Shown here piece after piece: positions 1 through 60,266 of a stretch of 64,000 nucleotides of DNA. Numbering within the stretch: position 1 is the stretch's first letter; each line of letters starts with the position of its first letter. Origin of the DNA: Gemmatimonadales bacterium (GTDB taxonomy: Bacteria; Gemmatimonadota; Gemmatimonadetes; Gemmatimonadales; GWC2-71-9); assembly GCA_035259785.1 (NCBI GenBank), contig DATFVZ010000095.1, positions 2,100 through 66,099 of the forward strand, written 5' to 3'. The translations under genes were made by a program, and so were the position numbers. The notes under the pieces were generated by a model, which saw only the letters and a list, made by a program, of their open reading frames with translations, made no database searches and was not told the DNA's origin.

Positions 1-133
1 CCGAGAGTGCCCAGCCCACCGTGCGCGCCGCGCCGGGTCGACCGGCCAGCCGCGCGACGATGCCATAGGTCGCCACTCGTCCCTTGGGGATGTGACGGAC
101 CACGCGGTAGATCCGATGATAGAATGGATTCAC
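1..133 (-). CDS. MGMT/ATL-family protein (methylated-DNA--protein-cysteine methyltransferase DNA-binding domain); 5' part only, gene runs off the left edge
   Basis: Reverse-strand translation from GTG at 133 gives VNPFYHRIYRVVRHIPKGRVATYGIVARLAGRPGAARTVGWALS. This matches the IPxGxVxTYGxxAxxxGxPxxARxVGxA pattern of the MGMT/Ogt C-terminal domain family. It is absent from the ORF track because the window edge truncates it. Confidence 0.55.
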   Translation of the reverse strand, partial: MNPFYHRIYRVVRHIPKGRVATYGIVARLAGRPGAARTVGWALS

Positions 134-147
134 GAGGGCGCCCGCTA

Positions 148-591
148 CTAGCTTACGCGCAGAACATCTTCCAGCAAGCCCGCGTTACCACCCCCCACTA
201 TTGACAAAATGTCGTCCAGTGCTCTCCGCTCGCGGGGCCAGGCAAACCGCGTCCCGGCGTCCCCGGGGCTCATCCATTCGGCGCGGTCGTGCTCATTCGA
301 GAGTTGCACCGTGGCGCTGGAGGACACGAAGGCAACGAACACGGGAATCACCGCAAGCACATCGGTGCGATGCTGATAGAACGCTTCGGTGCGGCTGAGA
401 TTGTAGAGTTTTTCGGGAACGAGGCCGGTCTCTTCACGCAACTCGCGGAGCGAGGCCTCGACGGGGGTCTCGCCCTGCTCGATGGTGCCGTGAATCGTTT
501 CCCACGATCCGGGACAGCGGCCGGCGCGACTGCGCCGCAGCGCCAAAACCTGGAGCTGCGCACCGGCTCCACGCAGTGCGTAGGTATCCAC
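148..591 (-). CDS. NUDIX hydrolase
   Basis: 147-aa ORF with a Nudix box, GTIEQGETPVEASLRELREETGL. GTG start at 591, 30 nt downstream of the preceding gene's stop. Confidence 0.8.
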   Translation of the reverse strand: MDTYALRGAGAQLQVLALRRSRAGRCPGSWETIHGTIEQGETPVEASLRELREETGLVPEKLYNLSRTEAFYQHRTDVLAVIPVFVAFVSSSATVQLSNEHDRAEWMSPGDAGTRFAWPRERRALDDILSIVGGGNAGLLEDVLRVS

Positions 592-621
592 GAAGGAAAC
601 GCGGATCTCTGTCAGAGGCTC

Positions 622-2892
622 CTAACGGCGGCGGCCGAGTACTGCCTCGAGCCGCGCCGACAGCGCGCGCGCGCGGAAGGGCTTCGTCAGAAAATCGTCG
701 GCGCCGAGCTCGAAGACGCGCACTTCGTTGTCCTCATCGCCTTTGGCGGTCAACACGATCACGGGAATGTTGGCGGTCGCGGGACGCGAGCGCAGATGCG
801 ACAGCACGCCGTAGCCATCGAGCCCGGGCAGGTTCAAGTCGAGCACGATGATGTCGGGACCGATGCGATCGACCTGATCGAGGGCCTGGACGCCGTCGCG
901 CGCCTCCGTCACGGCGTACCCGTCGCGCTCGAGGAGGTCGCGCATCACTTTGCGCAGACTGTCCTCATCGTCCACGAGCAGCACTTTCGAAGCGGGCTGG
1001 CCGTGCGCGCCCGAGCGGCGTGCGGACGTGACGGGCTCTTCCAGTAGATCGAAATGCGTCATGACTGCGCCGGCTGGCTCGGCGGGGGGAGGAAACGACA
1101 CGGTACCCGGCGCCGGCGTCCAGCGTGGCGCTTCCGTAATGCCGGAGGTCCGCGTCGTCCCGGATGGCCGCGCTGGTTCGCCGGCCTGCGACGAACGGGG
1201 GCCCTCTTCCGACGGGATATCCACGACGCGCGTGAGCTCTTCGATCGTGGACTCCCCACGCGTGACATGCGCGAGACCCGAGTCCCACAGCGATTTCATT
1301 CCGCCGCGCCTGGCGGCTTCGGCAATGCGGTCCGCGGCTTCGCCCGCGGCGATGCGGCGCTCCAGCTCGGGCCCCATCGTGAGGATCTCGAGGATCGAGA
1401 ACCGACCGCGATACCCGGTCATCGCGCAGTCGGGACACCCGCCCGCACGGTACAGCGGCGTGCCCTTCGGGATCCAGCGGCGCAAACGCTCCGGCGGCGT
1501 CTCCATCCAGACTTCCTTGCAGGTGTTGCACAACCTCCGCATCAGCCGCTGGGCCACGACCCCGCGCAGCGACGCGGCGATCTTGTACGGCTCGACGCCG
1601 ATGTCGACGAGTCGCGTCACCGCGTTGGCCGCGTCGTTGGTGTGCAGCGTCGAGAGCACGAGGTGGCCCGTGAGCGACGCCTGTACCGCGATCTGCGCCG
1701 TCTCCTTGTCGCGGATCTCGCCGACCAGCACGACGTTCGGGTCCTGGCGCAGGATGGACCGCAACGCGGCAGCGAACGTGAGGCCGGCCTTCTCCTGCAC
1801 CTGCACCTGCACAATGCCCTGCATCCGGTACTCGACCGGATCTTCGACCGTGACGATGTTGACGCCTTCACTCTTGATCTGGTTGATCGCTGAGTAGAGC
1901 GTCGTCGTTTTGCCGGAGCCGGTCGGGCCGGTCACCAGGAGGATCCCTTCGTGATTCTCGAGCAGACGCTTGATCGAATCCCCTTCCCCAGGATTCAGAC
2001 CCAGCGAGTCGAGTGATTTGACGGTCACGCGCGAATCCAAGATCCGGATCACGACCTTCTCGCCGAGCTGCGCGGGCAGCGTCGAAACGCGGAGGTCGAT
2101 CGGCTGACCGTTCACCGCCACGCGGGCGCGCCCGTCCTGCGGCCGCAGCCGGTCGGCGATATCGAGCGACGACATGATCTTGATGCGCGAAATCAGCGGC
2201 AGGCCTGCCTGGCGGGGGATCTTCATGACTTGCCGCAACACCCCGTCGATGCGGTAACGCACCGCGACGCCGCCCTCTTCGGGCTCGACGTGGATGTCGC
2301 TTGCCCGCGAGAGAATGCCTTCGGAAATGATCATGTCGACGAGCCGCACGACCGGCTTCTGGCTCGCGTCCGCTTCGGAGATCAGCTCTTCGGGGGGCGT
2401 GTCGGGGAGCGCAGTCAGGATCTCGTTGTCGCCCATGTTCTCCAAGAGCTTCTCGAGCTGCTTCTCGGGCCGGTACAGCTCGTCGAGCTTCTCAGCAATC
2501 TTCCCCGGAGGAAGGAGCAGCAAGCGGATTTCTCGCGCCGTGGCAAACGCGAGCGCCTTCTCGGCGTCGAGATCGAACGGATTCGCGGTGCCCAGCTCGA
2601 GGTAGGAGTCCGTCAGGCGTAACGGCAGAACACGATACCGGCGGGCGAGCTGCTCCGGCACACCGTCGCGGACGCTGGTATCGATCTTGGACGCGTCGGC
2701 GACCTTCAACCGGAAGCGGTGCGACAGCTTGTCAATGATTTCGGCGTCGGTGGTGAGCTTTTCGGCAACCAGGGCTTCCCAGAGCGTACGACCGGCCTCC
2801 GCCTTCCCCCGAAGCTCCTGCAGGAGCTCGGGGGTCATCAGGCCCTCCAGGGACTGGGCCAGCCATTCGTCGGGGAACGCCGTGACCGCCAT
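622..2892 (-). CDS. GspE/PilB-family secretion ATPase (T2SS/T4P type) with a C-terminal response-regulator receiver domain
   Basis: 756 aa. N-terminal T2SSE_N-like region. Walker A LVTGPTGSGKTTT. Tetracysteine CNTCKE...CPDCAMTGYRGR. A Pro/Ser/Thr-rich linker is followed by a REC domain (KVLLVDDEDS...IIVLDLNLPGLDG...VLTAKG...LTKPF). Confidence 0.9.
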   Translation of the reverse strand: MAVTAFPDEWLAQSLEGLMTPELLQELRGKAEAGRTLWEALVAEKLTTDAEIIDKLSHRFRLKVADASKIDTSVRDGVPEQLARRYRVLPLRLTDSYLELGTANPFDLDAEKALAFATAREIRLLLLPPGKIAEKLDELYRPEKQLEKLLENMGDNEILTALPDTPPEELISEADASQKPVVRLVDMIISEGILSRASDIHVEPEEGGVAVRYRIDGVLRQVMKIPRQAGLPLISRIKIMSSLDIADRLRPQDGRARVAVNGQPIDLRVSTLPAQLGEKVVIRILDSRVTVKSLDSLGLNPGEGDSIKRLLENHEGILLVTGPTGSGKTTTLYSAINQIKSEGVNIVTVEDPVEYRMQGIVQVQVQEKAGLTFAAALRSILRQDPNVVLVGEIRDKETAQIAVQASLTGHLVLSTLHTNDAANAVTRLVDIGVEPYKIAASLRGVVAQRLMRRLCNTCKEVWMETPPERLRRWIPKGTPLYRAGGCPDCAMTGYRGRFSILEILTMGPELERRIAAGEAADRIAEAARRGGMKSLWDSGLAHVTRGESTIEELTRVVDIPSEEGPRSSQAGEPARPSGTTRTSGITEAPRWTPAPGTVSFPPPAEPAGAVMTHFDLLEEPVTSARRSGAHGQPASKVLLVDDEDSLRKVMRDLLERDGYAVTEARDGVQALDQVDRIGPDIIVLDLNLPGLDGYGVLSHLRSRPATANIPVIVLTAKGDEDNEVRVFELGADDFLTKPFRARALSARLEAVLGRRR

Positions 2893-2941
2893 TAGGCTCC
2901 TCCAAGCTATGGGTGCGGGCGTTCCAGTCCAGTATCGCGGC

Positions 2942-4972
2942 TCACAGAATGGGCCAAAAATCGCGGGTCACGTCGAACGCGACGCGCATGTCATGCGATT
3001 GGACCCCATACCCTGCCTCAACGCGAAATACGCCCAGCCACTCGGCTCCCAGCCCCAGCGTCATCCGTGTGCCGGGGGTCACCGACCATGGGGTCGGGAT
3101 CATGTCGATCTTGCCGTCCGCCCACCCGACCGCGACGTAGGGGGCTAACGTCATTGTGCCCGGCGTGCGTCCCGGGCCCACGGCCAGGCTGATAAACGGC
3201 ACAGGTGCGCGCCATTCCAGATGGATCAGTGCCGAGCGGCGGCCGCCCCATTCCCGGAACTCATCACCCAGCAGCGTGCTCCGGCCGCCCAGCACAAACG
3301 CGCGATGGGGCGGCAGGTCGACGGTACCCACACCAAATTCGCCTCGCAGGAGAACACGGCTGGCGCTTACCGGCAGCAGCACGTGACCCGAGCCGCTGAG
3401 CCGCGCGTAGCTCAGACTTGTGTCGTTGGCTCCCCCTTCGAGAGATATCTCGACTGCCAGATCACGCCGCACCGCGAAGCCTTCGCTGCGCCGACGCCAC
3501 GTCACCGCGGCCGAGTAGAACTGACCATCCAGCACCGCCGGATTGGCCCGGTACTGACCGGTGGCCGGCGTGGCGTGAATCTCCTGCGACTTGATCCGCT
3601 CGCTCATGGCAGACAACTGGAGCTCGCTGCGGCTCCCGGTCCGCGCTCGAAACCCCAAACGCGCCCCGGACGCAAGATAGTAGTCGCCATAATCATCGCC
3701 GAACTCTTGCGAGGCAATCGAATTCAGTAGGGGCGCGATCACCGGCGCGTCCGGGATGTCTTGCAGCTGCCGATACGCGCCGACGTCGAATCCGTATGCC
3801 GTCGTGAGCGTCACCGAACCCTTCCCCACGCCGTCGGAGAATCCGTAACTGCCGGCCGCCCGTCCCTCGTAGCGACCATTGCGTGAGCGAATCACGAAAC
3901 CCGCACCGAGCGCCACCCCCTCCACCCGATTTGCGTGGATCAGATCGCTCACCGAGCGCGCGCCGAGTCCGAAGCGTTTCAAACCGCTCAGCGCGTGGCG
4001 TCCCGCGATGCGGCTCGCCTCAGCGCGGACGGCCTCGAGATCGTTCTGGCGCACCGGCTCGGCGACATTCTGAATCGCCGCGCTCAGCGGACCCGGCCAG
4101 GGAAAACTATCTCGCTCGGGCTTAGGCGTGATGGTTATTTCGTCCCCGGCAAACCAGCTGTTCGCGATCCCCACGTTGAACTGGTAGGTGTCGATCTCCC
4201 AACGTCCGCGGATGATGCCGCGCACGGGCATCTCGAGCCAGGTTGCGCGGCGCCGGATCTCGATCTCTTGGCGGTAGGGGAGCCAGAACCGGCCATCCCA
4301 CAGCGCGTTGTCCAGTACGATGCTCATGTCTTCCAGGGACGGATCGAGATATGCGGCGGGCGTGAAGTTAAACGCCATGCGCACCAGCTCGGCCGTTTCG
4401 GCATCGACGAACAGCGTCCCGACGACGGCTGGATCCGCGAGATTTTTGGGCCGCACCCGCAACGCCACGACGCGCACCGCGCGCTGCGGCAGCACGATGG
4501 TGGCGGTATCGCCCAACGCGACGTCGTAGCGGTCCGTGCCTCCCGGCGCCAGCGGGTGCGGCACGTCACGCACCTCGTCGCCTTCCCCGAGCCGGATCGC
4601 ATGGCCGAAGTTGTTCTGGACGATGCCCAGGTGATCGCGATGATAATTGATGCCGCTAGGCATCTCGTTGCGATCGCGCCAGCCGATCACGCGCTGCTTG
4701 CTGAGCTGCGGCGCCTTCCAGTACACTTCCAGCTCCAGCTGGTCCGCTTTCACGAGCCGGGGCGGGTCGGTGAGCCCGTCGCCGAACTGTGCGAGGAAGA
4801 AGAGAAACCCGTGAGCCTGGGCCTTGTAGTCGCGCAACGCGGTGTCGACGGCGGCGCGCGTGCGGCGCTCGATCGCACGTCGCGCCAGCGCCAATGCCGA
4901 GTCGCTGTTCCAATCCTGAGCAGCGGCGCGGGTGGGCAGTACGAGGAGCAGGAGCGCGGCGGGCCAACGCAT
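2942..4972 (-). CDS. Secreted outer-membrane beta-barrel protein, Omp85/surface-antigen-like C-terminus
   Basis: The track ORF 2942..5833 is over-extended. The in-frame ATG at 4972 gives the signal peptide MRWPAALLLLVLPTRAAAQ. The C-terminal half is Gly/aromatic-rich with alternating beta-strand pattern. The part upstream of 4972 is antisense to trpE. Confidence 0.6.
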   Translation of the reverse strand: MRWPAALLLLVLPTRAAAQDWNSDSALALARRAIERRTRAAVDTALRDYKAQAHGFLFFLAQFGDGLTDPPRLVKADQLELEVYWKAPQLSKQRVIGWRDRNEMPSGINYHRDHLGIVQNNFGHAIRLGEGDEVRDVPHPLAPGGTDRYDVALGDTATIVLPQRAVRVVALRVRPKNLADPAVVGTLFVDAETAELVRMAFNFTPAAYLDPSLEDMSIVLDNALWDGRFWLPYRQEIEIRRRATWLEMPVRGIIRGRWEIDTYQFNVGIANSWFAGDEITITPKPERDSFPWPGPLSAAIQNVAEPVRQNDLEAVRAEASRIAGRHALSGLKRFGLGARSVSDLIHANRVEGVALGAGFVIRSRNGRYEGRAAGSYGFSDGVGKGSVTLTTAYGFDVGAYRQLQDIPDAPVIAPLLNSIASQEFGDDYGDYYLASGARLGFRARTGSRSELQLSAMSERIKSQEIHATPATGQYRANPAVLDGQFYSAAVTWRRRSEGFAVRRDLAVEISLEGGANDTSLSYARLSGSGHVLLPVSASRVLLRGEFGVGTVDLPPHRAFVLGGRSTLLGDEFREWGGRRSALIHLEWRAPVPFISLAVGPGRTPGTMTLAPYVAVGWADGKIDMIPTPWSVTPGTRMTLGLGAEWLGVFRVEAGYGVQSHDMRVAFDVTRDFWPIL

Positions 4973-4990
4973 CGCCGCCAAATCTAGGGT

Positions 4991-6481
4991 ATGGACCCCC
5001 GCGACGCATTCCTCCAGCGATCCAAGAGCGGCGGCATGGTGCCGGTGTTGCGCGAAGTGGTCACCGACACCGACACACCCGTGGCGGCATACGCGAAGAT
5101 TGCGCGACCGCCGTTTGCGTTTTTGCTCGAATCGCTCGTCGGGGGCGAGCGGTGGGCGCGATACACGTTCCTGGGCACCGAGCCGCGCGAAGCCTGGCGT
5201 TATCGCGGCGCTCGCGTCGAACGCTGGACGCTCGCGACCGGGTGGCGCGCGGCCGGCGAAACGGCCGATCCGATCACCCACCTGGCCGAGCGCATGCGCG
5301 CCCTCCCCGGCCCGCCGGTGCCCGGACTGCCCCGCTTCACCGGTGGCGCCGTGGGGTTCATGGGCTACGACCTCGTCCGCAGCATCGAGCGCCTTTCCCG
5401 GGGGCCGGAAGACACGCTCGATGTGCCCGACGCCATCGTGATGATCGCCGATTCGCTGGTCATTCTCGACAACGTCTTCGGCCGGGCGATCATCGTGGCA
5501 AACGTCGAGGTCCCGACTGGCGCCTCGACAGCGCAGCGACTGCAACTCTACGACAGCGGGCAGGAGCGAATCGACACCCTGCTGGCGCGGCTGGGCTCGA
5601 GTCACCAGCTGACCCCGCTGGTGCTCCAGGACAATGGACGTACGCCCCGCGCCGAATCGCGGTATCCGCGAGCCGCGTTCGAGCGCGACGTGGAAAAGGT
5701 CCGGGAGTACATCGCCGCGGGAGATGTCTTCCAGACCGTGCTGTCTCGCCGGCAGGTGGTCAAGGCGCCGGTCGATGCCCTGCGTCTGTATCGCTACCTG
5801 CGGGCGCTGAATCCCGCCCCGTACCTCTTCCATCTGGTGCTCGACGACGTGACGTTCGTCGGCAGCTCACCCGAAGTGCTGGTGCGCGTCGAAGGAGACG
5901 AGGTGACGGTGCGACCGATCGCCGGCACGCGCCCGCGCGGGGCGACCCCCGAGGAAGACAGCGCGCTCGCCCAAGCGCTGCGCGCCGATGAAAAGGAGCT
6001 GGCCGAACATCGCATGCTGGTCGATCTGGGCCGTAACGATGTCGGCCGTGTGGCGCAGTATGGCTCGGTGCACGTCACGAGCTCTCTCGAAATCGAGCGC
6101 TACTCGCACGTGCAACATCTCGTGAGCGAGGTGCGGGGCAAGCTCAGCCCCGGACATGACGCGCTCGATGTGTTCCGCGCCTGTTTTCCCGCCGGTACGG
6201 TGAGCGGCGCGCCGAAGGTGCGGGCGATGGAGATCATCGACGAGCTGGAGCCCGAGCGGCGCGGCCCGTACGCGGGTGCCGTGGGCTACGTGGGATGGGG
6301 CGCGACGAGTCTCGACACGTGCATCGCGATTCGCGCCGCGCTCGTTCTCAAGGATCGCGTCGTCATCCAGGCCGGCGCGGGGATCGTTGCCGATTCCAAC
6401 CCGGCGCGAGAGTTCGCCGAAACGGAGGCCAAGGCCCAAGCGGTGTTGCGCGCGCTCGCCCTTGCAAATGCTGGAGATTAG
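4991..6481 (+). CDS. trpE: Anthranilate synthase component I
   Basis: 496 aa. Has the FLLESLVGGERWARYTF (LLES) motif and the chorismate-binding C-terminal half (GTVSGAPKVRAMEIIDELE, GPYAGAVGY). Confidence 0.92.
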   Translation: MDPRDAFLQRSKSGGMVPVLREVVTDTDTPVAAYAKIARPPFAFLLESLVGGERWARYTFLGTEPREAWRYRGARVERWTLATGWRAAGETADPITHLAERMRALPGPPVPGLPRFTGGAVGFMGYDLVRSIERLSRGPEDTLDVPDAIVMIADSLVILDNVFGRAIIVANVEVPTGASTAQRLQLYDSGQERIDTLLARLGSSHQLTPLVLQDNGRTPRAESRYPRAAFERDVEKVREYIAAGDVFQTVLSRRQVVKAPVDALRLYRYLRALNPAPYLFHLVLDDVTFVGSSPEVLVRVEGDEVTVRPIAGTRPRGATPEEDSALAQALRADEKELAEHRMLVDLGRNDVGRVAQYGSVHVTSSLEIERYSHVQHLVSEVRGKLSPGHDALDVFRACFPAGTVSGAPKVRAMEIIDELEPERRGPYAGAVGYVGWGATSLDTCIAIRAALVLKDRVVIQAGAGIVADSNPAREFAETEAKAQAVLRALALANAGD

Positions 6482-6516: not shown

Positions 6517-8145
6517 GTGTTCAAACTGCTGAGCACCTCCGGTGATCAGTCGATAGACCTCCAGCTCGGCCGCAAGCTGGTCGTGGGACGAGCTGTGACG
6601 AGTGATGTTCCGATTTACGACCCCACCATCTCACGCCGGCACGCCGAGATCGTCCTCACTGAAAGCGGCGTGCGGGTTACTGACCTCGGCTCCTCCAACG
6701 GGACGTTCTTGAACGGCGCCAAGGTGACGGAAGCCGAGGCGGGGGCGAACGACGTCGTGACCTTCGGGAAAGTGGCATTCCGGGTCAAGGAAGTGACGAC
6801 CCCCATGCCCCGCCCCCAGGTCGTCGCTCACCCTCCGGACTTCGGGAGTCCACGACCCGGGAAGGGCGGCATCGGCGCGGGGACGATCGTGCGGCAGATG
6901 CCGGTGAGTATCTCGGGCGGCGTGCCGGCAATCGTCATGGACGAACCCCAAGGCGCTTCGCATCTCAAGGTCAAGGCGGACAATCTGGTCGAGCGTCGCG
7001 AGAAGAAGCTCTCGCTGCTGCTCGAGGTGTCGAAGGAGCTGTCCAAACAGCAGGAGCTCGATCGCCTGCTCGACAAGGTCGTGGATTTCACGTTCCAGAT
7101 CATGAACGTGGATCGCGTGTCGATCCTGCTGCTCGATGGCAAGTCGAATGAGCTGGTGCCGCGCATTTCGAAGAGCCGCACCGGCGACGCCAGCGCGGCG
7201 AAGCACGTGCCGCAATCGATCGCGCGCAAGGCGGTAGAAGAGCGCGTGGCGATCCTGTCCGACAACGCGGCCGCCGACGAGCGCTTTAAGGGGAAGTCGA
7301 TCCTGATCCAGAGCGTGCGCAGCGCGATGTGCACGCCGCTCATGGGCTCCGATTCCAAGGTCCTGGGCATCCTCTACGTCGACAACCTCACCGCCACGCA
7401 CTCCTTCGCGGACGAGGATCTCGAGTTCTTGATCGCGTTCGGCGGTTTGACCGCGGTCGCCATCGAGAATTCGCAGCTGTCGGATCGCCTGCGCCGAGAG
7501 GCGGTGGTGGTATCGAACTTTCAGCGCTATTTCGCCCCCAATCTCGCGACGCAGATCGCGCAGCAGGAAGGCGAAGTCGCGCTCGGCGGGACGAAACGCC
7601 CGGTGGTGGTGTTCTTCTCCGACATCCGCGGTTTCACGCCGATGTCGGAGACGATGAACCCCGATGAAATCGCCGGCATACTGACCGATTATTTCACCGA
7701 GATGGTCGACATCGTCTTCGAGCACTCGGGGACGCTCGACAAATTCATGGGGGACGCGATCATGGCGTTGTGGGGCGCACCGATCGCGCACGAGGACGAC
7801 GCTGATCGCGCAATGCAGTGCGCCCTCGATCAGATCCAGACGCTGGAGAAGATGAACGTCAAGTGGAAGGAGTCGGGGCGCCACCCCCTCGCGATCGGGA
7901 TCGGCATCAACTTCGGCGAGGTGTTTGCCGGCAACATCGGCTCCAACCGGCGGCTCGAGTACACCGTCATCGGCGACGCGGTGAATACCGCGAACCGCCT
8001 GTGTTCCTCCGCCGGCGCGAACGAGATCCTGATTTCCGAGCCGTTCTACAAGGCGCTCAAGAAGCCACCCAAGGTCGAAACACTCGACCCGATTCAGGTC
8101 AAGGGAAAATCCAAGAAGGTGCCGGTCTACCGCGTGAAACGGTAA
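6517..8145 (+). CDS. FHA-GAF-class III adenylate/guanylate cyclase signalling protein
   Basis: Probable GTG start at 6517; the track ORF from 6295 overlaps the trpE end. FHA domain: VVGRAVTSDVPIYDPTISRRHAEI...DLGSSNGTFLNG. A central GAF-like region follows. Cyclase domain: VVVFFSDIRGFTPMSE...FMGDAIMALWGAP...TVIGDAVNTANRL. Confidence 0.85.
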   Translation: MFKLLSTSGDQSIDLQLGRKLVVGRAVTSDVPIYDPTISRRHAEIVLTESGVRVTDLGSSNGTFLNGAKVTEAEAGANDVVTFGKVAFRVKEVTTPMPRPQVVAHPPDFGSPRPGKGGIGAGTIVRQMPVSISGGVPAIVMDEPQGASHLKVKADNLVERREKKLSLLLEVSKELSKQQELDRLLDKVVDFTFQIMNVDRVSILLLDGKSNELVPRISKSRTGDASAAKHVPQSIARKAVEERVAILSDNAAADERFKGKSILIQSVRSAMCTPLMGSDSKVLGILYVDNLTATHSFADEDLEFLIAFGGLTAVAIENSQLSDRLRREAVVVSNFQRYFAPNLATQIAQQEGEVALGGTKRPVVVFFSDIRGFTPMSETMNPDEIAGILTDYFTEMVDIVFEHSGTLDKFMGDAIMALWGAPIAHEDDADRAMQCALDQIQTLEKMNVKWKESGRHPLAIGIGINFGEVFAGNIGSNRRLEYTVIGDAVNTANRLCSSAGANEILISEPFYKALKKPPKVETLDPIQVKGKSKKVPVYRVKR

Positions 8146-13306: not shown

Positions 13307-14392
13307 TCAGGCCCGACGGGCTTCCATGGCGGGGGTAGGCAGGCGCAGCGGTTGCAGCTGGGGTGTGGGAATGGGCAAGGCGAGGTTGCCCACGAAGGCC
13401 TGACAGAACGCGTCCACGACCGCGGGGTCGAACTGCACGCTTTTCCCGTGCTCTAGCTCATGTATTGCTTGTTCCACGCTCAGCGAGGGCCGGTAGGGAC
13501 GGACACTCGTCATCGCGTCGAATGCGTCCGCGACGCTGACCACACGAGCTTCAAAGGGGATCGCATCGCCTTCCAAGCCGTCCGGAAACCCGCGGCCGTC
13601 GAGGCGCTCGTGATGCGAGCGCACGATCGATAGCGCGCCGGGAGCATCGCGCATCAGAGGCCCGAGAATACGCGCGCCGATGACGGTATGTTCCATGATG
13701 TGCCGGTATTCGTCGGCGCTGAGCTTTCCCGCCTTATGCAACACACTCTCGCTCACGCCGATCTTCCCGACATCGTGCAGCTCGGCGCCCAGCGCGATTG
13801 TCTCGACGAGGTCGGTATCGAGTTTCAGGGCCCGCGCGATTTCGACCGAATAGTTCGCGACGCGCATCGAATGGCCACGCGTGTACGCGTCTTTTGCTTC
13901 GAGGGCGAAGACCAGGGCGTGGACACCTTCGAGGAACAGCTCCTCGATGCGGCGCGCTTGCACCTCGACGCGCTCTTCCAAGTTCTTCTGATAGCTACGG
14001 TTCTCGATCAGTAACCGCCGCTTGTCGAGCGCCTGGGACACGCGCGCCCGCACTTCCTCGAGATGGAAGGGCTTTGCGACGTAATCGAGCGCGCCCATCT
14101 GCAAACAGGCGACGGCGCTTTCGACCTCAGCCACCGCGGTCACTACGATTACCGCGGTATCGGGCCAGCGTACGACGATTTCCCGCAGCAACGAGACGCC
14201 GTCCATTTCCGGCATCCGCAGATCGGAGATGACCAGTGGCGCGGGCCTCTGCGCGAGCTCCTGGAGCGCTTCCAGGCCAGACCCGGCTTCGGCGCAGGTA
14301 AAGCCTTCACCTTCGAGCAACCGCATCAGCACCCGGCGCAGCCGGGGCTCATCGTCGACGATCAGGCAGCGCATCCCTGAGGTGTTCGGCAT
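13307..14392 (-). CDS. Response regulator with HD-GYP domain (putative c-di-GMP phosphodiesterase)
   Basis: REC domain: MRCLIVDDEP...VISDLRMPEMDG...KPF. HD-GYP domain: LHDVGKIGV...HHERLDGRGFPDGL. Confidence 0.88.
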   Translation of the reverse strand: MPNTSGMRCLIVDDEPRLRRVLMRLLEGEGFTCAEAGSGLEALQELAQRPAPLVISDLRMPEMDGVSLLREIVVRWPDTAVIVVTAVAEVESAVACLQMGALDYVAKPFHLEEVRARVSQALDKRRLLIENRSYQKNLEERVEVQARRIEELFLEGVHALVFALEAKDAYTRGHSMRVANYSVEIARALKLDTDLVETIALGAELHDVGKIGVSESVLHKAGKLSADEYRHIMEHTVIGARILGPLMRDAPGALSIVRSHHERLDGRGFPDGLEGDAIPFEARVVSVADAFDAMTSVRPYRPSLSVEQAIHELEHGKSVQFDPAVVDAFCQAFVGNLALPIPTPQLQPLRLPTPAMEARRA

Positions 14393-19432: not shown

Positions 19433-21738
19433 TGAAGCTGCAGCTGCAGCTCGTACAGTCTCCGGTACATCCCCTCAGACCGCTGCAAGAGCTCCGCGTG
19501 CGTTCCATGCTCGACCAGCCGGCCTTCTTCGATCACGAACAGCCGCGACGCCTTCCGCAGCGTCGACAGGCGGTGCGCGATCGCAAACACCGTCCGCCCT
19601 GCCACGAGCCGCTCGAGCGCCTGCTGGATTTCCCGCTCGGTCTCCGTATCGACGCTGCTGGTTGCCTCGTCGAGAATGAGAATCCGCGGGTTGTGCAGAA
19701 TCGCTCGCGCGATCGACACCCGCTGGCGCTCACCACCTGACAGCGTGTGGCCGCGCTCACCCACCACTGTGTCATAGCCGTGCTGCAGCTTGGTGATGAA
19801 GTCGTGCGCGTTGGCCGCCTGCGCCGCCACGATGACCTGCGCGAGCGGCGCATCGGGCAAGCCATAGCGGATGTTCTCGAGCACGGTGCCGTGAAACAGA
19901 TACGGGTCCTGCAGCACCATGCCGATCTGCCGGCGGAAGTGCCCCGTATCGAGCCGCCGGATGTCGACGCCGTCGATCCGAATCGCGCCACCCGTAACGT
20001 CGTAGAAGCGCGCAATCAGGTTCACGATCGTCGTCTTGCCGCCGCCCGAAGGTCCGACCAGCCCAATCAGCTCTCCGGGCGTGACGTCGAAGCTCACGCC
20101 GCGGAGCACCTGCCGGACGCCGTCGTAACCGAACGCCACATGTTCGAACGTGACGCGCCCATGGACCGGTTCGAGGCGCACCGGTTCCGCGACATCGCGT
20201 ACCTCGGGCTCGGTGTCGAGCACCTCGAACACCCGATGCGCCGACGTCGTCGCCCGATTGATCGTGCGCGCCATCTGGCCGATCACGTCGATCGGCCCGA
20301 GGAACATCGTCGTGTAAAGCAAGAACGAGACGAACGTTCCTACCGGCAGCGCCACCCCATCGCCCAGGAGCCGCGGCACGGCGAATACCCAAACCGTCAC
20401 GGTCATCGTGTGTACGCCCAGGACAAGCAGCGGCCAGAACGTGGTCCACGAGGCGTGAATGCGATTGAACTCCGCCGTCACGTCCTCATTGCGTTCGCCA
20501 AAGCGCTCGATTTCGCGCTGCTCCTGATTGAACGCCTTGACGACCCGAATGCCCGGTATCGTGTCGGACAGCACGTCCGTCACGCGTGACCATTTGCGCC
20601 ACGCTCGGATGAACAGCCGGCTGATGTTCTCACCGTGCCGGTAAATCACCCAGCAGAAGAACGGCACCGGCACCGTCATGATCAGGCCGAGTCTCCAGTC
20701 GAGCGTGAGCAGGACCGTGCCGAGTCCCAGGAGCTGCACGAGCGAGAGCGACACGTCCACGACGCCGAACGCCAGGAACTCCCAAAGCCGGTCGGTATCG
20801 GCGGACACACGCGTGATCAAGCTCCCCGTGCGCTTGCGTGAGAAGAACGCGAGCGACAGTCGCTGGATGTGCTCGTACAGCTCGTCGCGCAGATCACGCG
20901 CGACCCACTCGCCCAGGATCGCCATAAGCCGCAGCCGGATGTGCGCCGCGGCCTGCTTGACGAGGTACACGACCGCCATTGCTGCGACGGCGATCCATGC
21001 GATCGTCCAGGCCCGCTCGAGCGGCAATGCACCCGCCTGCGCCGGCCGCACGACATGATCGATCAGGACACCAGCGAGGTACGGCGGGATCAGGCTCACC
21101 AGCGTGATCACCGTCGCCGCTCCCATGCCCAGGGTGAGCTGCCGGCGATACGGCTTCAGATAGCCGATCAATCGTCGCAGCACGGCGGTCTGACGACCGG
21201 ACACGAGGGCCTGGGCTTCGCGAATGGGTCGCGCGATGCTCTCGGCATAGACGCGATCGGCATCCATACCTGGGATCTCATGTCGGGCACCCGTCCCCCG
21301 TGCTGCGTCTCCCATCCCCTCTTCGAGCACGAATCGAATGTTCTCGAAGGCGCGCCGCTGCCGATGCGTGTAGCGCACGAGCGCGAGGGCGGGCTCGTCC
21401 GGTGGACCGAGGATCGTCAGCGTGTTTGCCGAGAGCCCCGGCGCTTCACGGACCGCCTGTATCGAACGCCGCTCAAAGCTGCGGATCTCCCACTCCTCGC
21501 CGGAACGGCGCGCCACCGCCACGTGGCGCGGGCCAAGCGCCACCCATGCCTCCGTCAGCCGCAGGCTTTGATCGAGGTCCGCGAGCGCATAGAGCTGAAC
21601 TGGGGCTCCCTGCCAGACGCGCTCGATCTCCCGTCGCAGCTCCGCAGGTAGACGCAGGGGCTGCGCGATATATCGCGTTATGATTTGATCGTCGAGTTGT
21701 TGCACCGTGCTCATGTCTTTGATCCTCGAGTTAACCAC
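19429..21738 (-). CDS. ABC transporter, fused permease/ATPase (exporter type) with an N-terminal cytoplasmic extension of about 190 aa
   Basis: Six-TM exporter core. Walker A GPSGGGKTT, signature LSGGERQR, Walker B ILILDEATS. The start could be ATG at 21714 (MSTVQQ) rather than 21738. Confidence 0.9.
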   Translation of the reverse strand: MVNSRIKDMSTVQQLDDQIITRYIAQPLRLPAELRREIERVWQGAPVQLYALADLDQSLRLTEAWVALGPRHVAVARRSGEEWEIRSFERRSIQAVREAPGLSANTLTILGPPDEPALALVRYTHRQRRAFENIRFVLEEGMGDAARGTGARHEIPGMDADRVYAESIARPIREAQALVSGRQTAVLRRLIGYLKPYRRQLTLGMGAATVITLVSLIPPYLAGVLIDHVVRPAQAGALPLERAWTIAWIAVAAMAVVYLVKQAAAHIRLRLMAILGEWVARDLRDELYEHIQRLSLAFFSRKRTGSLITRVSADTDRLWEFLAFGVVDVSLSLVQLLGLGTVLLTLDWRLGLIMTVPVPFFCWVIYRHGENISRLFIRAWRKWSRVTDVLSDTIPGIRVVKAFNQEQREIERFGERNEDVTAEFNRIHASWTTFWPLLVLGVHTMTVTVWVFAVPRLLGDGVALPVGTFVSFLLYTTMFLGPIDVIGQMARTINRATTSAHRVFEVLDTEPEVRDVAEPVRLEPVHGRVTFEHVAFGYDGVRQVLRGVSFDVTPGELIGLVGPSGGGKTTIVNLIARFYDVTGGAIRIDGVDIRRLDTGHFRRQIGMVLQDPYLFHGTVLENIRYGLPDAPLAQVIVAAQAANAHDFITKLQHGYDTVVGERGHTLSGGERQRVSIARAILHNPRILILDEATSSVDTETEREIQQALERLVAGRTVFAIAHRLSTLRKASRLFVIEEGRLVEHGTHAELLQRSEGMYRRLYELQLQLQ

Positions 21739-37113: not shown

Positions 37114-37719
37114 CTAGGCGCCGTAGCGTGCTACCAGCGCGAGCGCGTCGTCGTTGCCCTTCGTGTGGCGGGCGATGATGAAATCGGCGATCTCTTGCGG
37201 CGAGTTTGCGAGCACGAGCGACTCGGCGAAACCGTCTTTGATACCGTCCGAGTACAGGATCACGGTGTCGCGTACGCTCAGCGGGACAACCCGCACGGTG
37301 GTGTTGGGCAGCTCGCCGCCGATGAACCCCGCGCTCGGTACCAGCGTAATGCGCGGTGGCCTTGCCTTGGCATCGGCGCGCATCAAGACACCGCCGATGT
37401 TGCCAACGCCCAGCCACGTCATCGATTCTGCCTGCGGATCGAGATACGCGAGCCCCAGCACGACACCGCGCAGCCCCACCAGCGCCTGGTTGCTCCGCTT
37501 CACGAGATCGGGGAGCGGCTCACGAGAGTAGCGGTCAATGGCGCCGACGGCGGCATGCGCGGCGGACGCGGCTTCCTGACCGTGGCCGAGTCCGTCGACC
37601 ACGGCGAGCAGCGTCCCTTTTCCGACCCGCTTGATGAAGCAGAGATCGCCCGACTCGCTCTGGCCCGGCAGCGGCAGCTCGGCAAACGCCGTTTCGATTC
37701 TTAGATCGCGCGGCGCCAT
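37114..37719 (-). CDS. RsbX-like PP2C/SpoIIE-family serine phosphatase
   Basis: 201 aa: GDLCFIK...LLAVVDGLGHGQEAASAA...ILYSDG. Confidence 0.8.
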   Translation of the reverse strand: MAPRDLRIETAFAELPLPGQSESGDLCFIKRVGKGTLLAVVDGLGHGQEAASAAHAAVGAIDRYSREPLPDLVKRSNQALVGLRGVVLGLAYLDPQAESMTWLGVGNIGGVLMRADAKARPPRITLVPSAGFIGGELPNTTVRVVPLSVRDTVILYSDGIKDGFAESLVLANSPQEIADFIIARHTKGNDDALALVARYGA

Positions 37720-38108
37720 TTTTTCATCGTGACGGTGGTGCCTTGCCCAACGACCGACTTCAGATCGAATTCGTCCATGAGCCGCTTGGCGCCGGGCAGT
37801 CCCGCGCCCACGCCATGCGACGTCGAATAGCCGTACTGCATCGCGCGTTCGAGGTCGGGAATGCCGGGTCCCTGATCGCTGGCCACGATCGACACGCCCT
37901 GGCGGTCCCCGTTCTGCACGAGCGCGAGGGTGATCTCGCCCTTCTTGGCGTACATCAGGATGTTGCGGGCGATTTCGGAGATTGCGGCGGCAATGACCGT
38001 CTGCTCGCCGCTGGAGAACCCGGCGACTGCCGCTAGTGCCCGTCCCTGCTGTCGTGCTTCAACGACGTCGACGTCGGCGGCAATCGTAAGGCGCAGCTCC
38101 TCACCCAC
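37701..38108 (-). CDS. RsbT-like anti-sigma regulatory factor (serine protein kinase, HATPase fold)
   Basis: 135 aa: ISEIARNILMYAKKGEITL...ASDQGPGIPD...GLPGAKRLMDEF...GTTVTMKKW. Confidence 0.85.
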   Translation of the reverse strand: MGEELRLTIAADVDVVEARQQGRALAAVAGFSSGEQTVIAAAISEIARNILMYAKKGEITLALVQNGDRQGVSIVASDQGPGIPDLERAMQYGYSTSHGVGAGLPGAKRLMDEFDLKSVVGQGTTVTMKKWRRAI

Positions 38109-38499
38109 GGCCGCTCGGTCGCTTGGGCTTGATTTCGAGCGTCCGCTCCTTGGTGCGGCCGTCGAGGAAGGCGAGTCCCTCCTCGAGGTCCAGGACGGTC
38201 GCCACGCCCTTGAGCGTGAGGCCGAGCTGTACCATCGCGAACGCGACGTCCGGCTGGATACCGACGATCACCGTCTCCGCGCCGCGGAGGCGCGCCATGT
38301 GCGCAATGTCGCGCAGCGTGCGGACCGCGAACGAGTCCATGACGTCGAGCGCGGTGACGTCGACGATCACGCCGCGGCACCGCGACCGTCCGACCTGGGC
38401 GATCAGCGCTTCGCGAAGATGGGAAAGGTCGGCGTCGGTAAGGGCTGACTGAATCGACGCAATGAGATATTGCCCCTGCCGCAGAATAGGTACTTCCAC
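38101..38499 (-). CDS. RsbS-like single-STAS-domain protein
   Basis: 132 aa: VPILRQGQYLIASIQSALTD...VIVDVTALDVMDSFAVRTL, with Ser at the canonical phospho-acceptor DS position. Confidence 0.85.
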   Translation of the reverse strand: MEVPILRQGQYLIASIQSALTDADLSHLREALIAQVGRSRCRGVIVDVTALDVMDSFAVRTLRDIAHMARLRGAETVIVGIQPDVAFAMVQLGLTLKGVATVLDLEEGLAFLDGRTKERTLEIKPKRPSGRG

Positions 38500-38520
38500 A
38501 GCGTCCTCCGGAGGGGAGTG

Positions 38521-39453
38521 TTACCGGTTGGTTTCGGGAGGGAGCTCGCCGCGAATCGGTGGCGTCGGCCCGCGATCCGCCAATAACCGCTCGGCCTCTT
38601 CGATGCCTCCCTGCAGGTCGCCGACGGTGGCCATTTCGCTGAGATCGACCCCGATCGTGACGAGGGTCTGCGCGATTTCGGGCGACAGGCCCGTCACGAT
38701 GACGGTCGCGCCCAGGAGACGGGAGGCTTCGACGGTCTGCACGAGGTGGTTCGCAACGCCAGAGTCCATGGCTGCCACACCGGTTACGTCGATCACCACG
38801 ACCTTGGCGCGGTTGGCGCGAATCGCGCGCAGCAGCTGTTCGGTGAGCTGCCGGGCGCGCTGCGGATCAATGACGCCGATGATCGGCAGAATGAGGAGCC
38901 GTTCGCGGACCTGCAACACCGGCGTCGACAGCTCCCGGATCGCTTCCTGTTGCTGCCGGATAATGCGCTCGCGCTCTTCCACGAATCCGACGGCCACTGT
39001 GTTCGCGATGCGGTTCGCCGCGGGCTCGTAGGAGTCGAGAATCCGGTTCAGCTTTTCGACGTTGTCCTGGTATTTGTTGAAGAGCGAGCGGGCGAGTACG
39101 TCACGCAGTAACAGCACGATACCGACGACTTCATCCGTTTCGACGCCTCGGGGAATGATTCGCTCCGACAGTCGCCGAGAGTAGGCCTGCAGCGCTTCGA
39201 AGGTTCCGGTCTCGAGGGCTTCCACGTAGTTGTCGTACACGGCCGTCGCTTCAGCGAAAATCTCCTCTTCCGTCATCGCCGTCAGCAGCTCGGCGCGCGT
39301 GATGCGGCGGGCCCATTCCTCGCGCAGCTGCGTGCGGTTTTGCCGCAGGTGCGCGACCAGCTCGCGCAGCAAGCCGGCGGACGATTCGGACAGTGTGCTA
39401 GACTCGGGAGCGCGCGTTGAGACGCTCATATTGCTTCGCTTGGTGTCGGCCAT
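38521..39453 (-). CDS. RsbR-like stressosome protein (N-terminal sensory domain plus C-terminal STAS)
   Basis: 310 aa. C-terminal STAS: STPVLQVRERLLILPIIGVIDPQRARQL...VVIDVTGVAAMDSGVANHL...IVTGLSPEIAQTLV. The helical N-terminal half is RsbRD_N-like. Confidence 0.85.
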   Translation of the reverse strand: MADTKRSNMSVSTRAPESSTLSESSAGLLRELVAHLRQNRTQLREEWARRITRAELLTAMTEEEIFAEATAVYDNYVEALETGTFEALQAYSRRLSERIIPRGVETDEVVGIVLLLRDVLARSLFNKYQDNVEKLNRILDSYEPAANRIANTVAVGFVEERERIIRQQQEAIRELSTPVLQVRERLLILPIIGVIDPQRARQLTEQLLRAIRANRAKVVVIDVTGVAAMDSGVANHLVQTVEASRLLGATVIVTGLSPEIAQTLVTIGVDLSEMATVGDLQGGIEEAERLLADRGPTPPIRGELPPETNR

Positions 39454-39476
39454 GTTCCAAACCTAGTGTGGGGAGT

Positions 39477-40883
39477 TTAGGGAGCAAGACCTGCGGATCC
39501 CGTCTTGCGGCGCTCCTTGGTCTCGTAGAGCGCAACATCGGCTGCGTTCAGCAAGGCCTCGACAGTCTCTCCATGACCGGGGTACACCGCTACCCCAACA
39601 CTGATCGACAAGTTCGGCTTCTCGGCGTCGGTGGCCAGCCGGTCCACTACGCCGCGCGCCACATGCCAGGCAGCGGCCTCGCCGGTCTCGGGCAGCACGA
39701 GGGCAAATTCATCGCCTCCAAAGCGCGCCGCCGTATCCGTTGCGCGGCAGGAGCCCATCAACGCCTCGGCGACCCGGCGGATCGCGAGGCTGCCCGAAAG
39801 ATGCCCGTGCCGGTCGTTGATCTGCTTCAGACCGTCGAGATCCAGCAGCACTACCGCCAGCGGCTGCGCCGTCCGGCGCGAGCGCTTGATCTCAGCCTCG
39901 AGGGCGTTCACGAGTTGCCGATGATTCGCGAGTCCCGTCAACGGATCCGTGACCGCCAACTCGCGCCAGGTGCCCTCGACGTCGCGCTGCGCCGCGACCA
40001 CCGCCGCGACCACGAGGCTCGTCACCGCCGTGACACCGGTCCAGACTTGCAGCAATGTCAGCGACTCGCTCACCGTGTATTGGCCGAACGGACCGTAGCC
40101 ATGGACCGTGCGAAAGATCGCGATGAGCGAAATGACGAGGATCGAGGTCGCCGCCTCGCGCGGCCCGAAACGGAATGCGACCCAGATCAGTACAGGCCAG
40201 AGCAACACCGTCAGGGAGTAATTGCGTGACGGGTACAACCCGCCGAAGATCGCGAACGTCACCGCCGCAACGATGAGCGCGGCGGCGATCGCCTCGATCA
40301 CTTGACCGCGACTCAGACGGACCGTCGGCTTGACGCCGATCCACAGGATCAACGCGGGGGCAATGACGATGTCCCCGACCGCGTCACCCAGCCACCAGAT
40401 GAGCCACACGCGCGCGGCATCCGACCACGGCAGGAGGCCGCCCGTCACGAGTGACACTACGCCGATCGTCGCGCTGACCGTGGTACTCAGCAGTGCCGCG
40501 AGAGCCGCGAACCGGAAGATGTCGCGCACCCGGTCGAACACGCGGCCGCCGCGCGCGAATCGATTGATGAGGTAGGCGCCGAGCAACCCTTCGAGCGTAT
40601 TTCCGACACCGATGGCAATCGATGGCAGGATCGCGCCGGTCGTGGTGACGTTCGCGAGCAGAGCAGCGCCGAAAATCGCCGGCCACACGCGGTAGCCGAA
40701 CAGGACGAAGGCCGCGAGCGCGATGCCGGTGGGCGGCCAGACGGTTGTGACCGAACTGTTGATGAATGCGAATCGGAGACCGAGTTTGGCGGCGACGTAA
40801 TAGACGCCCCCGAGCCCCACCAGCAGAGCCAGCCGGCGTAGCGATTGGCTCATCTGGCCTAGGCTAAAGGAGCTATTCATCAC
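39477..40883 (-). CDS. MASE1-GGDEF diguanylate cyclase
   Basis: 468 aa. A polytopic N-terminal domain of about 290 aa resembles MASE1. The GGDEF domain has an intact RFGGDEF and an RxxD I-site (RATD) five residues upstream. Confidence 0.88.
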   Translation of the reverse strand: MMNSSFSLGQMSQSLRRLALLVGLGGVYYVAAKLGLRFAFINSSVTTVWPPTGIALAAFVLFGYRVWPAIFGAALLANVTTTGAILPSIAIGVGNTLEGLLGAYLINRFARGGRVFDRVRDIFRFAALAALLSTTVSATIGVVSLVTGGLLPWSDAARVWLIWWLGDAVGDIVIAPALILWIGVKPTVRLSRGQVIEAIAAALIVAAVTFAIFGGLYPSRNYSLTVLLWPVLIWVAFRFGPREAATSILVISLIAIFRTVHGYGPFGQYTVSESLTLLQVWTGVTAVTSLVVAAVVAAQRDVEGTWRELAVTDPLTGLANHRQLVNALEAEIKRSRRTAQPLAVVLLDLDGLKQINDRHGHLSGSLAIRRVAEALMGSCRATDTAARFGGDEFALVLPETGEAAAWHVARGVVDRLATDAEKPNLSISVGVAVYPGHGETVEALLNAADVALYETKERRKTGSAGLAP

Positions 40884-60262: not shown

Positions 60263-60266
60263 GCTC

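Follow-up and report, generated by a model that had tools for sequence, protein, structure and literature searches.

A PilB/GspE-class ATPase with a C-terminal receiver domain in a Gemmatimonadales genome

Motors of type IV pili (T4P) and of systems for type II secretion (T2SS) come under the control of cyclic di-GMP (c-di-GMP) and by separate adaptor and response-regulator proteins. PilG and PilH of P. aeruginosa control the polar recruitment of PilB (PMC11656802), DrdR of X. campestris stimulates the ATPase activity of PilB and PilT, both of which it binds (PMC13507683), and the PatA-type regulators PixE and PixG of Synechocystis bind PilB1 and PilC (bioRxiv 10.1101/2021.06.11.447907). The gene described here lies at positions 622 to 2892 on the reverse strand of a 64,000-nucleotide stretch of Gemmatimonadales DNA (contig DATFVZ010000095.1; the whole stretch is called the window), and encodes an ATPase of the PilB/GspE class with a receiver (REC) domain at its C-terminus. 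Like PilG/PilH, DrdR and PixE/PixG, it would couple two-component phosphorylation to a pilus extension motor. Those regulators are separate proteins, often tied to chemosensory arrays, whereas the receiver of the window protein is predicted to be a covalent part of each motor subunit.

Signalling domains built into PilB/GspE-type motors have been catalogued before. Supplementary Table 4 of Wang et al. 2016 has REC-MshEN-T2SSE (Gmet_3473), GAF-MshEN-T2SSE and MshEN-T2SSE-cNMPbind (DP2226) proteins, and in DP2226 the regulatory module is likewise C-terminal. The MshEN-T2SSE-REC order is absent from that table, and the REC of the window protein sits instead at the C-terminus on a long disordered tether. 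A fused receiver is unmentioned in a 2024 review of PilB regulation (PMC11656802), and no experimental study of a C-terminal REC on a PilB/GspE motor was found in the full-text literature, in which subscription journals are mostly uncovered. The preliminary description of this DNA did not recognise the arrangement as characterised, which holds as far as experiments go, but the arrangement is not rare, being present in 110 of the best 150 matching protein clusters. The fusion represents a known class of motor in a widespread variant, which has been catalogued by computation but is uncharacterised.

Layout and integrity of the fusion gene

The gene and its parts are listed below; the model used is an AlphaFold2 (AF2) model.

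622..2892, reverse strand: MshEN-like/T2SSE ATPase/linker/REC fusion gene, an intact open reading frame (ORF) of 756 aa plus stop with an ATG start
2897..2903, reverse strand: Shine-Dalgarno-like GGAGGAG, 7 nt upstream of the fusion-gene ATG, read from the sequence
2698..2892, reverse strand: aa 1-65, degenerate MshEN_N-like four-helix subdomain (AF2, phmmer, hhalign)
2458..2697, reverse strand: aa 66-145, T2SSE_N/MshEN_C (N1) subdomain (Pfam PF05157, AF2)
1225..2367, reverse strand: aa 176-556, N2 and C-terminal ATPase domains (Pfam T2SSE, conserved residues, Foldseek)
991..1224, reverse strand: aa 557-634, low-complexity disordered linker (AF2 confidence, ortholog variability)
625..990, reverse strand: aa 635-756, REC domain (Pfam PF00072, AF2 fold, invariant residues)

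The domain scan proposed in the preliminary description placed all three expected domains above threshold in Pfam: MshEN/T2SSE_N (PF05157) at aa 66-145 (5e-15), T2SSE (PF00437) at aa 176-555 (3e-132; 441 bits with the cutoff at 24.9, over profile positions 3-370 of 370) and Response_reg (PF00072) at aa 637-748 (3e-32; 111.5 bits against a cutoff of 30.2). The ATPase core is complete, as had been read from the letters, with Walker A (GPTGSGKTTT) at 322-331 including K328, E392 in the Walker B region, H417 in the His box, and a tetracysteine zinc site made up of Cys455, Cys458, Cys486 and Cys489. The receiver is equally full, and the canonical residues ascribed to it are all present (D641 and D642, the acceptor D685, T715 and K737), along with the switch residue F734.

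The AF2 model was built from a two-phylum alignment (Gemmatimonadota and Calditrichota) and has a mean predicted local distance difference test score (pLDDT) of 76. It places N-terminal helices at 11-14, 21-29, 37-43 and 49-60, an alpha/beta fold in the T2SSE_N subdomain (pLDDT 81-91), and a (beta-alpha)5 fold in the REC, with five strand-helix units at 636-755 (pLDDT 79-92). The linker is rich in Pro, Ala, Ser, Gly and Thr, and its pLDDT is about 28 (<50) over aa 563-631. Its low complexity and disorder agree with the first reading of the sequence, but its length is about 70-78 aa (aa 557-634) rather than about 90.

The fusion is kept as one gene in other genomes. A protein with a 100% match (P0001) comes from a Gemmatimonadales metagenome-assembled genome (MAG), and the best 120 homologs, which have 86-100% identity and come from many independent metagenomes, show the same architecture in 120/120 cases at lengths of 738-763 aa. 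Full-length orthologs with 57-89% identity are encoded in at least 80 Gemmatimonadales/Gemmatimonadota genomes, one genome per species having been scanned. A frameshift or assembly artefact is ruled out by the uninterrupted fusion in the 120 close homologs and the 80 species genomes; no frameshift or stop in the linker divides it into two genes.

Conservation was followed in 67 orthologs that could be extracted cleanly. No region is better conserved than the REC, with a mean identity to the window protein of 0.85, followed by the ATPase core (0.79), T2SSE_N (0.65), the N-terminus (0.48) and the linker (0.29), the last of which ranges from 54 to 105 aa. K328, E392, H417, the four cysteines, D642, D685, F734 and K737 are invariant in 67/67 orthologs, while position 641 has Asp in 55 of them and Glu in 12, and a single ortholog has Ser for T715. 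The key ATPase residues, plus D642, D685 and K737, are also invariant across Gemmatimonadota and Calditrichota. From these regional identities and invariant residues, purifying selection is deduced for both the motor and the receiver.

The same residues bear on whether the REC might be a structural or pseudo-receiver module, such as a localisation or oligomerisation tag, that is not controlled by phosphorylation. Precedents are the REC of FimX, which is without the acceptor Asp (PMC11656802), and the N-terminal REC of DrdR, which is a pseudo-receiver (PMC13507683), and the window holds no kinase for the receiver. Pseudo-receivers typically lose the residues that are kept here across two phyla (D642, D685 and K737), and in the 67 orthologs all five phosphorylation residues and F734 are conserved apart from the D/E exchange at 641 and the single S at 715. 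A pseudo-receiver is thus exceedingly unlikely.

Distribution, pilus-linked relatives and motor class

The search ran over about 15 billion proteins, clustered at 50% identity with one sequence standing for each cluster, and its best 150 matches were classified by architecture as follows; the ranking is biased to REC-containing proteins, since the query has a REC.

T2SSE with C-terminal REC: 109 of the best 150 clusters (110 with the three-REC form)
T2SSE with three RECs: 1 of the best 150 clusters
REC then T2SSE: 3 of the best 150 clusters
T2SSE then NUDIX: 3 of the best 150 clusters
tandem T2SSE: 16 of the best 150 clusters
T2SSE alone: 18 of the best 150 clusters

By their source labels the T2SSE-REC lineages come from Gemmatimonadota, Calditrichota and a 'Deltaproteobacteria' MAG, and the IMG label for these proteins is 'PilB-like protein/CheY-like'. 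In many of the fusions the REC is preceded by a double zinc ribbon. Fusion to a REC is commonplace, and nothing in the window protein departs from known principles; motor C-termini often bear added regulatory domains, which include REC, zinc ribbon plus REC, NUDIX and, in the table of Wang et al., cNMP-binding domains.

Some members of the set are very large. In P0156, P0159 and P0173 (1428-1528 aa), T2SSE is joined to a double zinc ribbon, a REC and a long tail that resembles a coiled coil, and one of them is labelled as coming from a Deltaproteobacteria MAG. A 1182-aa member of this giant T2SSE-zinc-ribbon-REC type (P0149, at L086:6243-9791) stands alone without pilus genes. The tandem T2SSE clusters (P0130, P0131, P0135, P0137 and others) have two or three complete units per polypeptide, mostly of about 1000 aa.

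Relatives in Calditrichota are linked to pilus genes. P0153 (~40% identity), P0148 and P0321 share the layout of the window protein and its D-x-W-L signature at the N-terminus, and each is the first gene of an operon (L081, L087 and L093). The REC-fused ATPase is followed there by prepilin peptidase, T2SSF, pilins, PilM/PilO, a secretin and a PilT-like ATPase, so that the fusion stands at the pilB position in three Calditrichota operons. A platform gene, of the kind looked for beside the window copy, is present as T2SSF in these operons. One of the three, L093, comes from the complete chromosome of the cultured strain GD2. Nearly all of the 120 listed homologs from Calditrichota retain the fusion, and a type IV pili cluster has been noted in the genome of C. 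abyssi (PMC5317091).

Two lineages carry the fusion in Gemmatimonadales. The second REC-fused lineage (P0132, P0508) has about 49% identity to the window protein and is also labelled Gemmatimonadales, and Gemmatimonadota genomes encode type IV pili (PMC10581226; PMC7844134). In its loci (L084:3317-6990; L094:7931-12605 and 20366-21360), cmk, aroA and tyrA lie upstream and a stand-alone REC of 125-141 aa lies directly downstream. These loci also have conserved pairs of an unknown protein of ~180 aa and a type IV pilin with a class III signal (GFSFLE, GWTMIE or GFTFIE). The copy in L094 adjoins a Cu-oxidase/multihaem-cytochrome cluster. No assembly prefix is common to the window-type and second lineages among the fetched loci.

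The closest NCBIfam models are both equivalogs for assembly motors. GspE (TIGR02533) is the top-scoring model, with 561.5 bits against a cutoff of 630.25 over model positions 4-485 of 486, and PilB (TIGR02538) follows with 522.5 bits against a cutoff of 675.65. Because both scores fall below the equivalog cutoffs, the protein is assigned by sequence to the wider PilB/GspE class only, and not to GspE or PilB proper. Sequence scores against the PDB are near equal (383 bits for PilB 5ZFR, 382 bits for GspE 4PHT), and no solved PDB chain in that search spans both the ATPase and the REC parts.

Foldseek comparison of the modelled core with solved structures gave template-modelling (TM) scores of 0.87-0.90 to PilF/PilB structures overall, at a root-mean-square deviation (rmsd) of about 2.5 A and 45-47% identity. 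The best of these were PilF 5OIU (TM 0.90, rmsd 2.4 A) and PilB 5TSG (TM 0.90). EpsE 1P9W matched with TM 0.79 and 47% identity, while PilT retraction motors match the core at only about 24% identity. Given the higher identity to PilF, PilB and EpsE than to PilT, the window protein is predicted to be an assembly (extension-type) ATPase and not a PilT-type one.

With the PilB/PilF extension ATPases of type IVa pili (Geobacter PilB 5TSG/5ZFR; Thermus PilF 5OIU/5IT5), the window protein shares an MshEN-type N-terminus, the N2 and C-terminal ATPase domains, Walker A and B, the His box and the tetracysteine zinc site. It differs from them in the linker of about 70 aa and the C-terminal REC and in its sub-cutoff PilB score, and neither pilC nor pilM-Q is encoded beside its gene in the 64-kb window. 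GspE/EpsE proteins (V. cholerae 1P9R/4KSR; V. vulnificus 4PHT) have the same zinc motif and a core fold at TM about 0.8 with 47% identity. Relative to these the window protein adds an N-terminal helical subdomain and the C-terminal REC, has no gsp neighbours and scores below the GspE cutoff.

The protein might otherwise be placed among the GspE proteins of type II secretion systems, in which a pseudopilus serves protein export. Its best NCBIfam score is to GspE, its PDB scores do not separate the two families, and the tetracysteine zinc site is typical of GspE and PilB alike. The score is nevertheless under the GspE equivalog cutoff, the extra helical MshEN_N subdomain is typical of PilB and MshE, and no gsp genes lie near the window gene. 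The Calditrichota operons also contain a PilT-like retraction ATPase and PilM/PilO, in line with the type IV pili cluster of C. abyssi (PMC5317091). A T2SS GspE is decidedly unlikely.

c-di-GMP, phosphorylation and the proposed mechanism

The N-terminus belongs to a domain that in some motors binds c-di-GMP. The best PDB match of aa 1-145 is V. cholerae MshEN 5HTL (E=1e-5, phmmer), and the N-terminus aligns with the canonical MshEN_N profile at 97.2% probability (E=3.4e-11, hhalign). By sequence and model it is therefore homologous to MshEN_N, with the order of four-helix MshEN_N followed by MshEN_C kept. MshE (V. cholerae VC0405) and other MshEN ATPases have the same order of MshEN_N, MshEN_C and T2SSE. 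The leucine-rich segments noted earlier, at aa 9-31 and 36-60, are the positional equivalents of the two MshEN_N halves, whose tandem motifs they were said loosely to resemble, but the Pfam match covers aa 66-145 instead.

The strict c-di-GMP motif consists of two tandem 24-residue units, RLGxx(L/V/I)(L/V/I)xxG(L/V/I)(L/V/I)xxxxLxxxLxxQ, which a spacer of 5 residues separates (Wang et al. 2016, PMC5013675). Neither this nor the relaxed motif of Wang et al. is present in the window protein or in any of 75 extracted ortholog ORFs (0/75), while six distant relatives with a true MshEN domain, used as positive controls (P0182, P0272, P0205, P0220, P0230 and P0241), match the relaxed motif twice. 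In motif I, R-L-G aligns with W10-L11-A12 (V in most orthologs at 12), the position-21 Leu with R28 and the Gln with K30. The second motif has T36-L37-W38 for R-L-G, K45 for the turn Gly and R59 for the Gln. These replacements are of the same kinds as those in XpsE, the loss of c-di-GMP binding in which is attributed to G11V, L29R, R38G, G40L and Q61V (Wang et al., PMC5013675). The ligand-contacting Arg, Gly and Gln of both MshE motifs are thus replaced, in a pattern like that of non-binding XpsE.

In place of the motif, the window-protein family has an invariant N-terminal signature, F-x-D-E-W-L ... S/T-L-W, of which D8 and W10 are invariant across Gemmatimonadota and Calditrichota. The Trp residues of the signature are at or beside the positions of the guanine-contacting Arg and Gly in MshE.

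The preliminary description had linked the N-terminus to c-di-GMP partly through other genes of the window, which are indeed there.

39477-40883: GGDEF protein
57903-58733: GGDEF protein
13307-14392: REC-HD-GYP protein

A working c-di-GMP receptor like MshE, tied to these proteins and with phosphorylation as a second input, would fit the MshEN homology and the hydrophobic skeleton kept in both motifs (L23, L27, L37, I52 and L56). Some distant REC-fused relatives do have two relaxed motifs, and a perfect motif is perhaps not needed for binding (Wang et al., PMC5013675). The failure of the motif in every ortholog ORF that was tried, when the controls pass, and the XpsE-like loss of Arg and Gly from each R-L-G triplet, of the second turn Gly and of both Gln residues make such a receptor very unlikely. 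The GGDEF and HD-GYP genes lie 10-55 kb off, which is no evidence of linkage. Canonical c-di-GMP binding was accordingly rejected, and the suggested link through the N-terminus did not survive alignment to the consensus. With the canonical binding residues of its MshEN-like domain lost, the window protein is probably not acted on directly by c-di-GMP. There is also no Rfam family in the window, and so no c-di-GMP riboswitch.

Phosphorylation of the REC is the proposed input. The closest solved relative of the domain is the PhoB receiver (1e-25, PDB sequence search). Receivers of the PhoB type pair through the alpha4-beta5-alpha5 face. On balance, and with moderate confidence, the window protein may be taken as a type IV filament motor under phospho-regulation, with its machine encoded elsewhere. 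In such a system an active hexameric ATPase of the PilB/GspE class would drive the polymerisation of a type IV pilin-like filament through a PilC/GspF platform, and a phospho-accepting REC would be permanently tethered to the motor C-terminus by the disordered linker, some 70 residues long. The gene for the histidine kinase that would phosphorylate D685 would lie elsewhere. With six tethered RECs per hexamer, and so a high local concentration, the phosphorylated REC may change the activity, partner binding or localisation of the motor, by docking onto the ATPase ring or onto the partners PilC/PilM, or by pairing with the RECs of neighbouring protomers in the manner of PhoB. The outcome would be filament extension switched on or off, or a changed site of motor recruitment. 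The protein would then be a cis-acting version of the trans regulators PilG/PilH, DrdR and the PatA type, and the partner machine (pilins, PilC and secretin) would lie outside the 64-kb window in the Gemmatimonadales genome.

If so, two-component signalling would be linked to filament extension more directly than in any case so far, through a receiver in each motor subunit. With one protein and one Asp, the system would also make a simple test case, from which the gating of a PilB-class hexamer by phosphorylation could be learned.

Several observations weigh against a phospho-regulated filament motor. The protein scores under both equivalog cutoffs, and how phosphorylation would act on the motor we infer throughout. 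Searches of the window with real pilus-operon queries (tblastn) found no prepilin peptidase, PilC/GspF, PilM/O or secretin, and the same queries found none within 10 kb in any of 80 orthologous loci. Since no partner genes are near, the tie of the window lineage to a filament machine is one of homology. Three kinase queries found no HisKA/HATPase_c histidine kinase in the 64-kb window, the sole HATPase_c protein of which is an RsbT-like stressosome kinase. The pilin-linked second lineage could be the real pilus motor, leaving the window copy another role, and a simple pilus-motor model does not account for the linkage and fusion of the ATPase to a NUDIX hydrolase, set out below.

The window also has no prepilin signal motif in any frame, under conditions where positive controls score, and its single T2SSE gene is the fusion itself. 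The ATPase had been called an orphan, and there is indeed no platform, pilin or secretin gene in 64 kb, but its homologs head full type IV pilus operons in Calditrichota. The annotation of the window gene is corrected on three points: the readings as a frameshift artefact and as a c-di-GMP receptor both fall away, and the term orphan applies only locally.

Neighbouring genes and other features of the window

Two genes flank the fusion gene on the same strand.

148..591, reverse strand: NUDIX hydrolase gene, 147 aa, intact Nudix box (Pfam 1.5e-18), 30 nt after the ATPase stop
2942..4972, reverse strand: upstream secreted barrel-like protein, 676 aa, signal peptide MRWPAALLLLVLPTRAAAQ, weakly DUF5686/Omp85-like

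The NUDIX assignment made earlier is borne out by Pfam. The protein has weak similarity to NudB, MutT, RppH and Ap4A hydrolases. A NUDIX gene is downstream of the ATPase in 69/74 informative loci, adjacent in 39 and behind hisC-hisB-hisH in 28. The 2.4-kb insert between ATPase and NUDIX in those 28 loci had been considered as a kinase or pilC and is hisC-hisB-hisH.

Three mutually diverged clusters (P0134, P0166 and P0186) have the ATPase fused to a full-length ortholog of the window NUDIX instead of the REC (E 1e-28 to 1e-38). The NUDIX-fusion loci L088 (2374-4632) and L089 (10001-11875) are syntenic with the window, sharing the barrel-like gene, trpE, maf and dtd, and are therefore positional orthologs from a sister lineage. 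Judged by sequence, this sister lineage has the NUDIX at the C-terminal position of the REC, which suggests a functional tie between the ATPase and the NUDIX hydrolase. The fusion could also be a tolerated joining of neighbouring genes. In L089 (9562-11875) the gene calls divide the ATPase between two overlapping genes, one of 166 aa with the MshEN part and one of 624 aa with T2SSE-NUDIX; this could be an assembly frameshift or a real split. The gene contexts of P0138, P0174 and P0201 are uninformative, being on short contigs.

The upstream gene does encode a secreted protein, but the earlier label of an Omp85-like barrel comes from sub-threshold Pfam matches only (Omp85, 18.6 bits against a cutoff of 24; DUF5686, 23.8 against 39.2). 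The protein has no NCBIfam match, and its single-sequence AF2 model has a pLDDT of 30. The 963-aa ORF listed for this gene (2942-5833, reverse strand) over-extends into trpE (4991-6481, forward strand). Its likely start is at 4972, with the signal peptide MRWPAALLLL, 18 nt from the divergent trpE start.

The barrel-like gene is directly upstream of the ATPase and on the same strand in 63/65 informative loci, but has the opposite orientation in L088 and L089 and is absent from the Calditrichota and second-lineage loci. The whole region is syntenic among orthologous loci (trpE, the FHA-GAF-cyclase gene, maf, dtd and glmS), so the adjacency of the ATPase to its neighbours is weak functional evidence. 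A barrel-ATPase operon, considered as functional evidence, is weakened by this synteny together with the opposite strand in L088/L089 and the absence elsewhere, and the membership of the barrel-like gene in the ATPase system is uncertain. A promoter and terminator scan of positions 1-5400 gave nothing above chance.

The neighbourhood raises the possibility that the window copy has been diverted from pilus assembly, as a phospho-regulated ATPase that acts with the NUDIX hydrolase, and perhaps the barrel-like protein, in an envelope or nucleotide-signalling process, the second lineage being the true pilus motor. The constancy of both neighbours and the direct ATPase-NUDIX fusions in three diverged clusters would fit such a role, as would the lack of pilus genes near the window-type copy in any genome examined, when a separate REC-fused Gemmatimonadales lineage lies beside pilins. 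A precedent comes from M. xanthus, in which PilB is described as acting in the regulation of exopolysaccharide as a signalling protein (PMC5544727). The synteny of the whole region may, on the other hand, mean that adjacency reflects slow genome rearrangement only. The his genes intervene between ATPase and NUDIX in 28 loci, the barrel-like gene changes strand in L088 and L089, and the two REC-fused lineages have no assembly prefix in common among the fetched loci. The full set of motor residues, including the zinc site, is also conserved as in working PilB/GspE proteins. A diverted role is on the whole unlikely, if still a real possibility.

A further reading, which we consider quite unlikely, is that of a distinct Gemmatimonadota module made up of the motor ATPase, the NUDIX hydrolase and perhaps the barrel-like protein. 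The C-terminal tether would then be a slot for exchangeable REC or NUDIX domains, and the remodelled MshEN-like domain would sense a ligand other than c-di-GMP. If true, this would be a new nucleotide- and phosphorylation-gated motor of the type IV filament class, apart from the pilin-linked copy.

Other features of the window are listed below.

37114-40883, reverse strand: genes for MASE1-GGDEF, then RsbR-like and RsbS-like (both STAS), RsbT-like (HATPase_c) and RsbX-like (SpoIIE/PP2C) proteins
6520-8145, forward strand: FHA-GAF-adenylate/guanylate cyclase protein, at the same position in most orthologous loci
59477-61028, forward strand: a pair of neighbouring paralogs with 49% identity, of which the first encodes a MEDS-domain protein (Pfam)

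The genes at 37114-40883 form a stressosome-type module, which is apparently coupled to a diguanylate cyclase.

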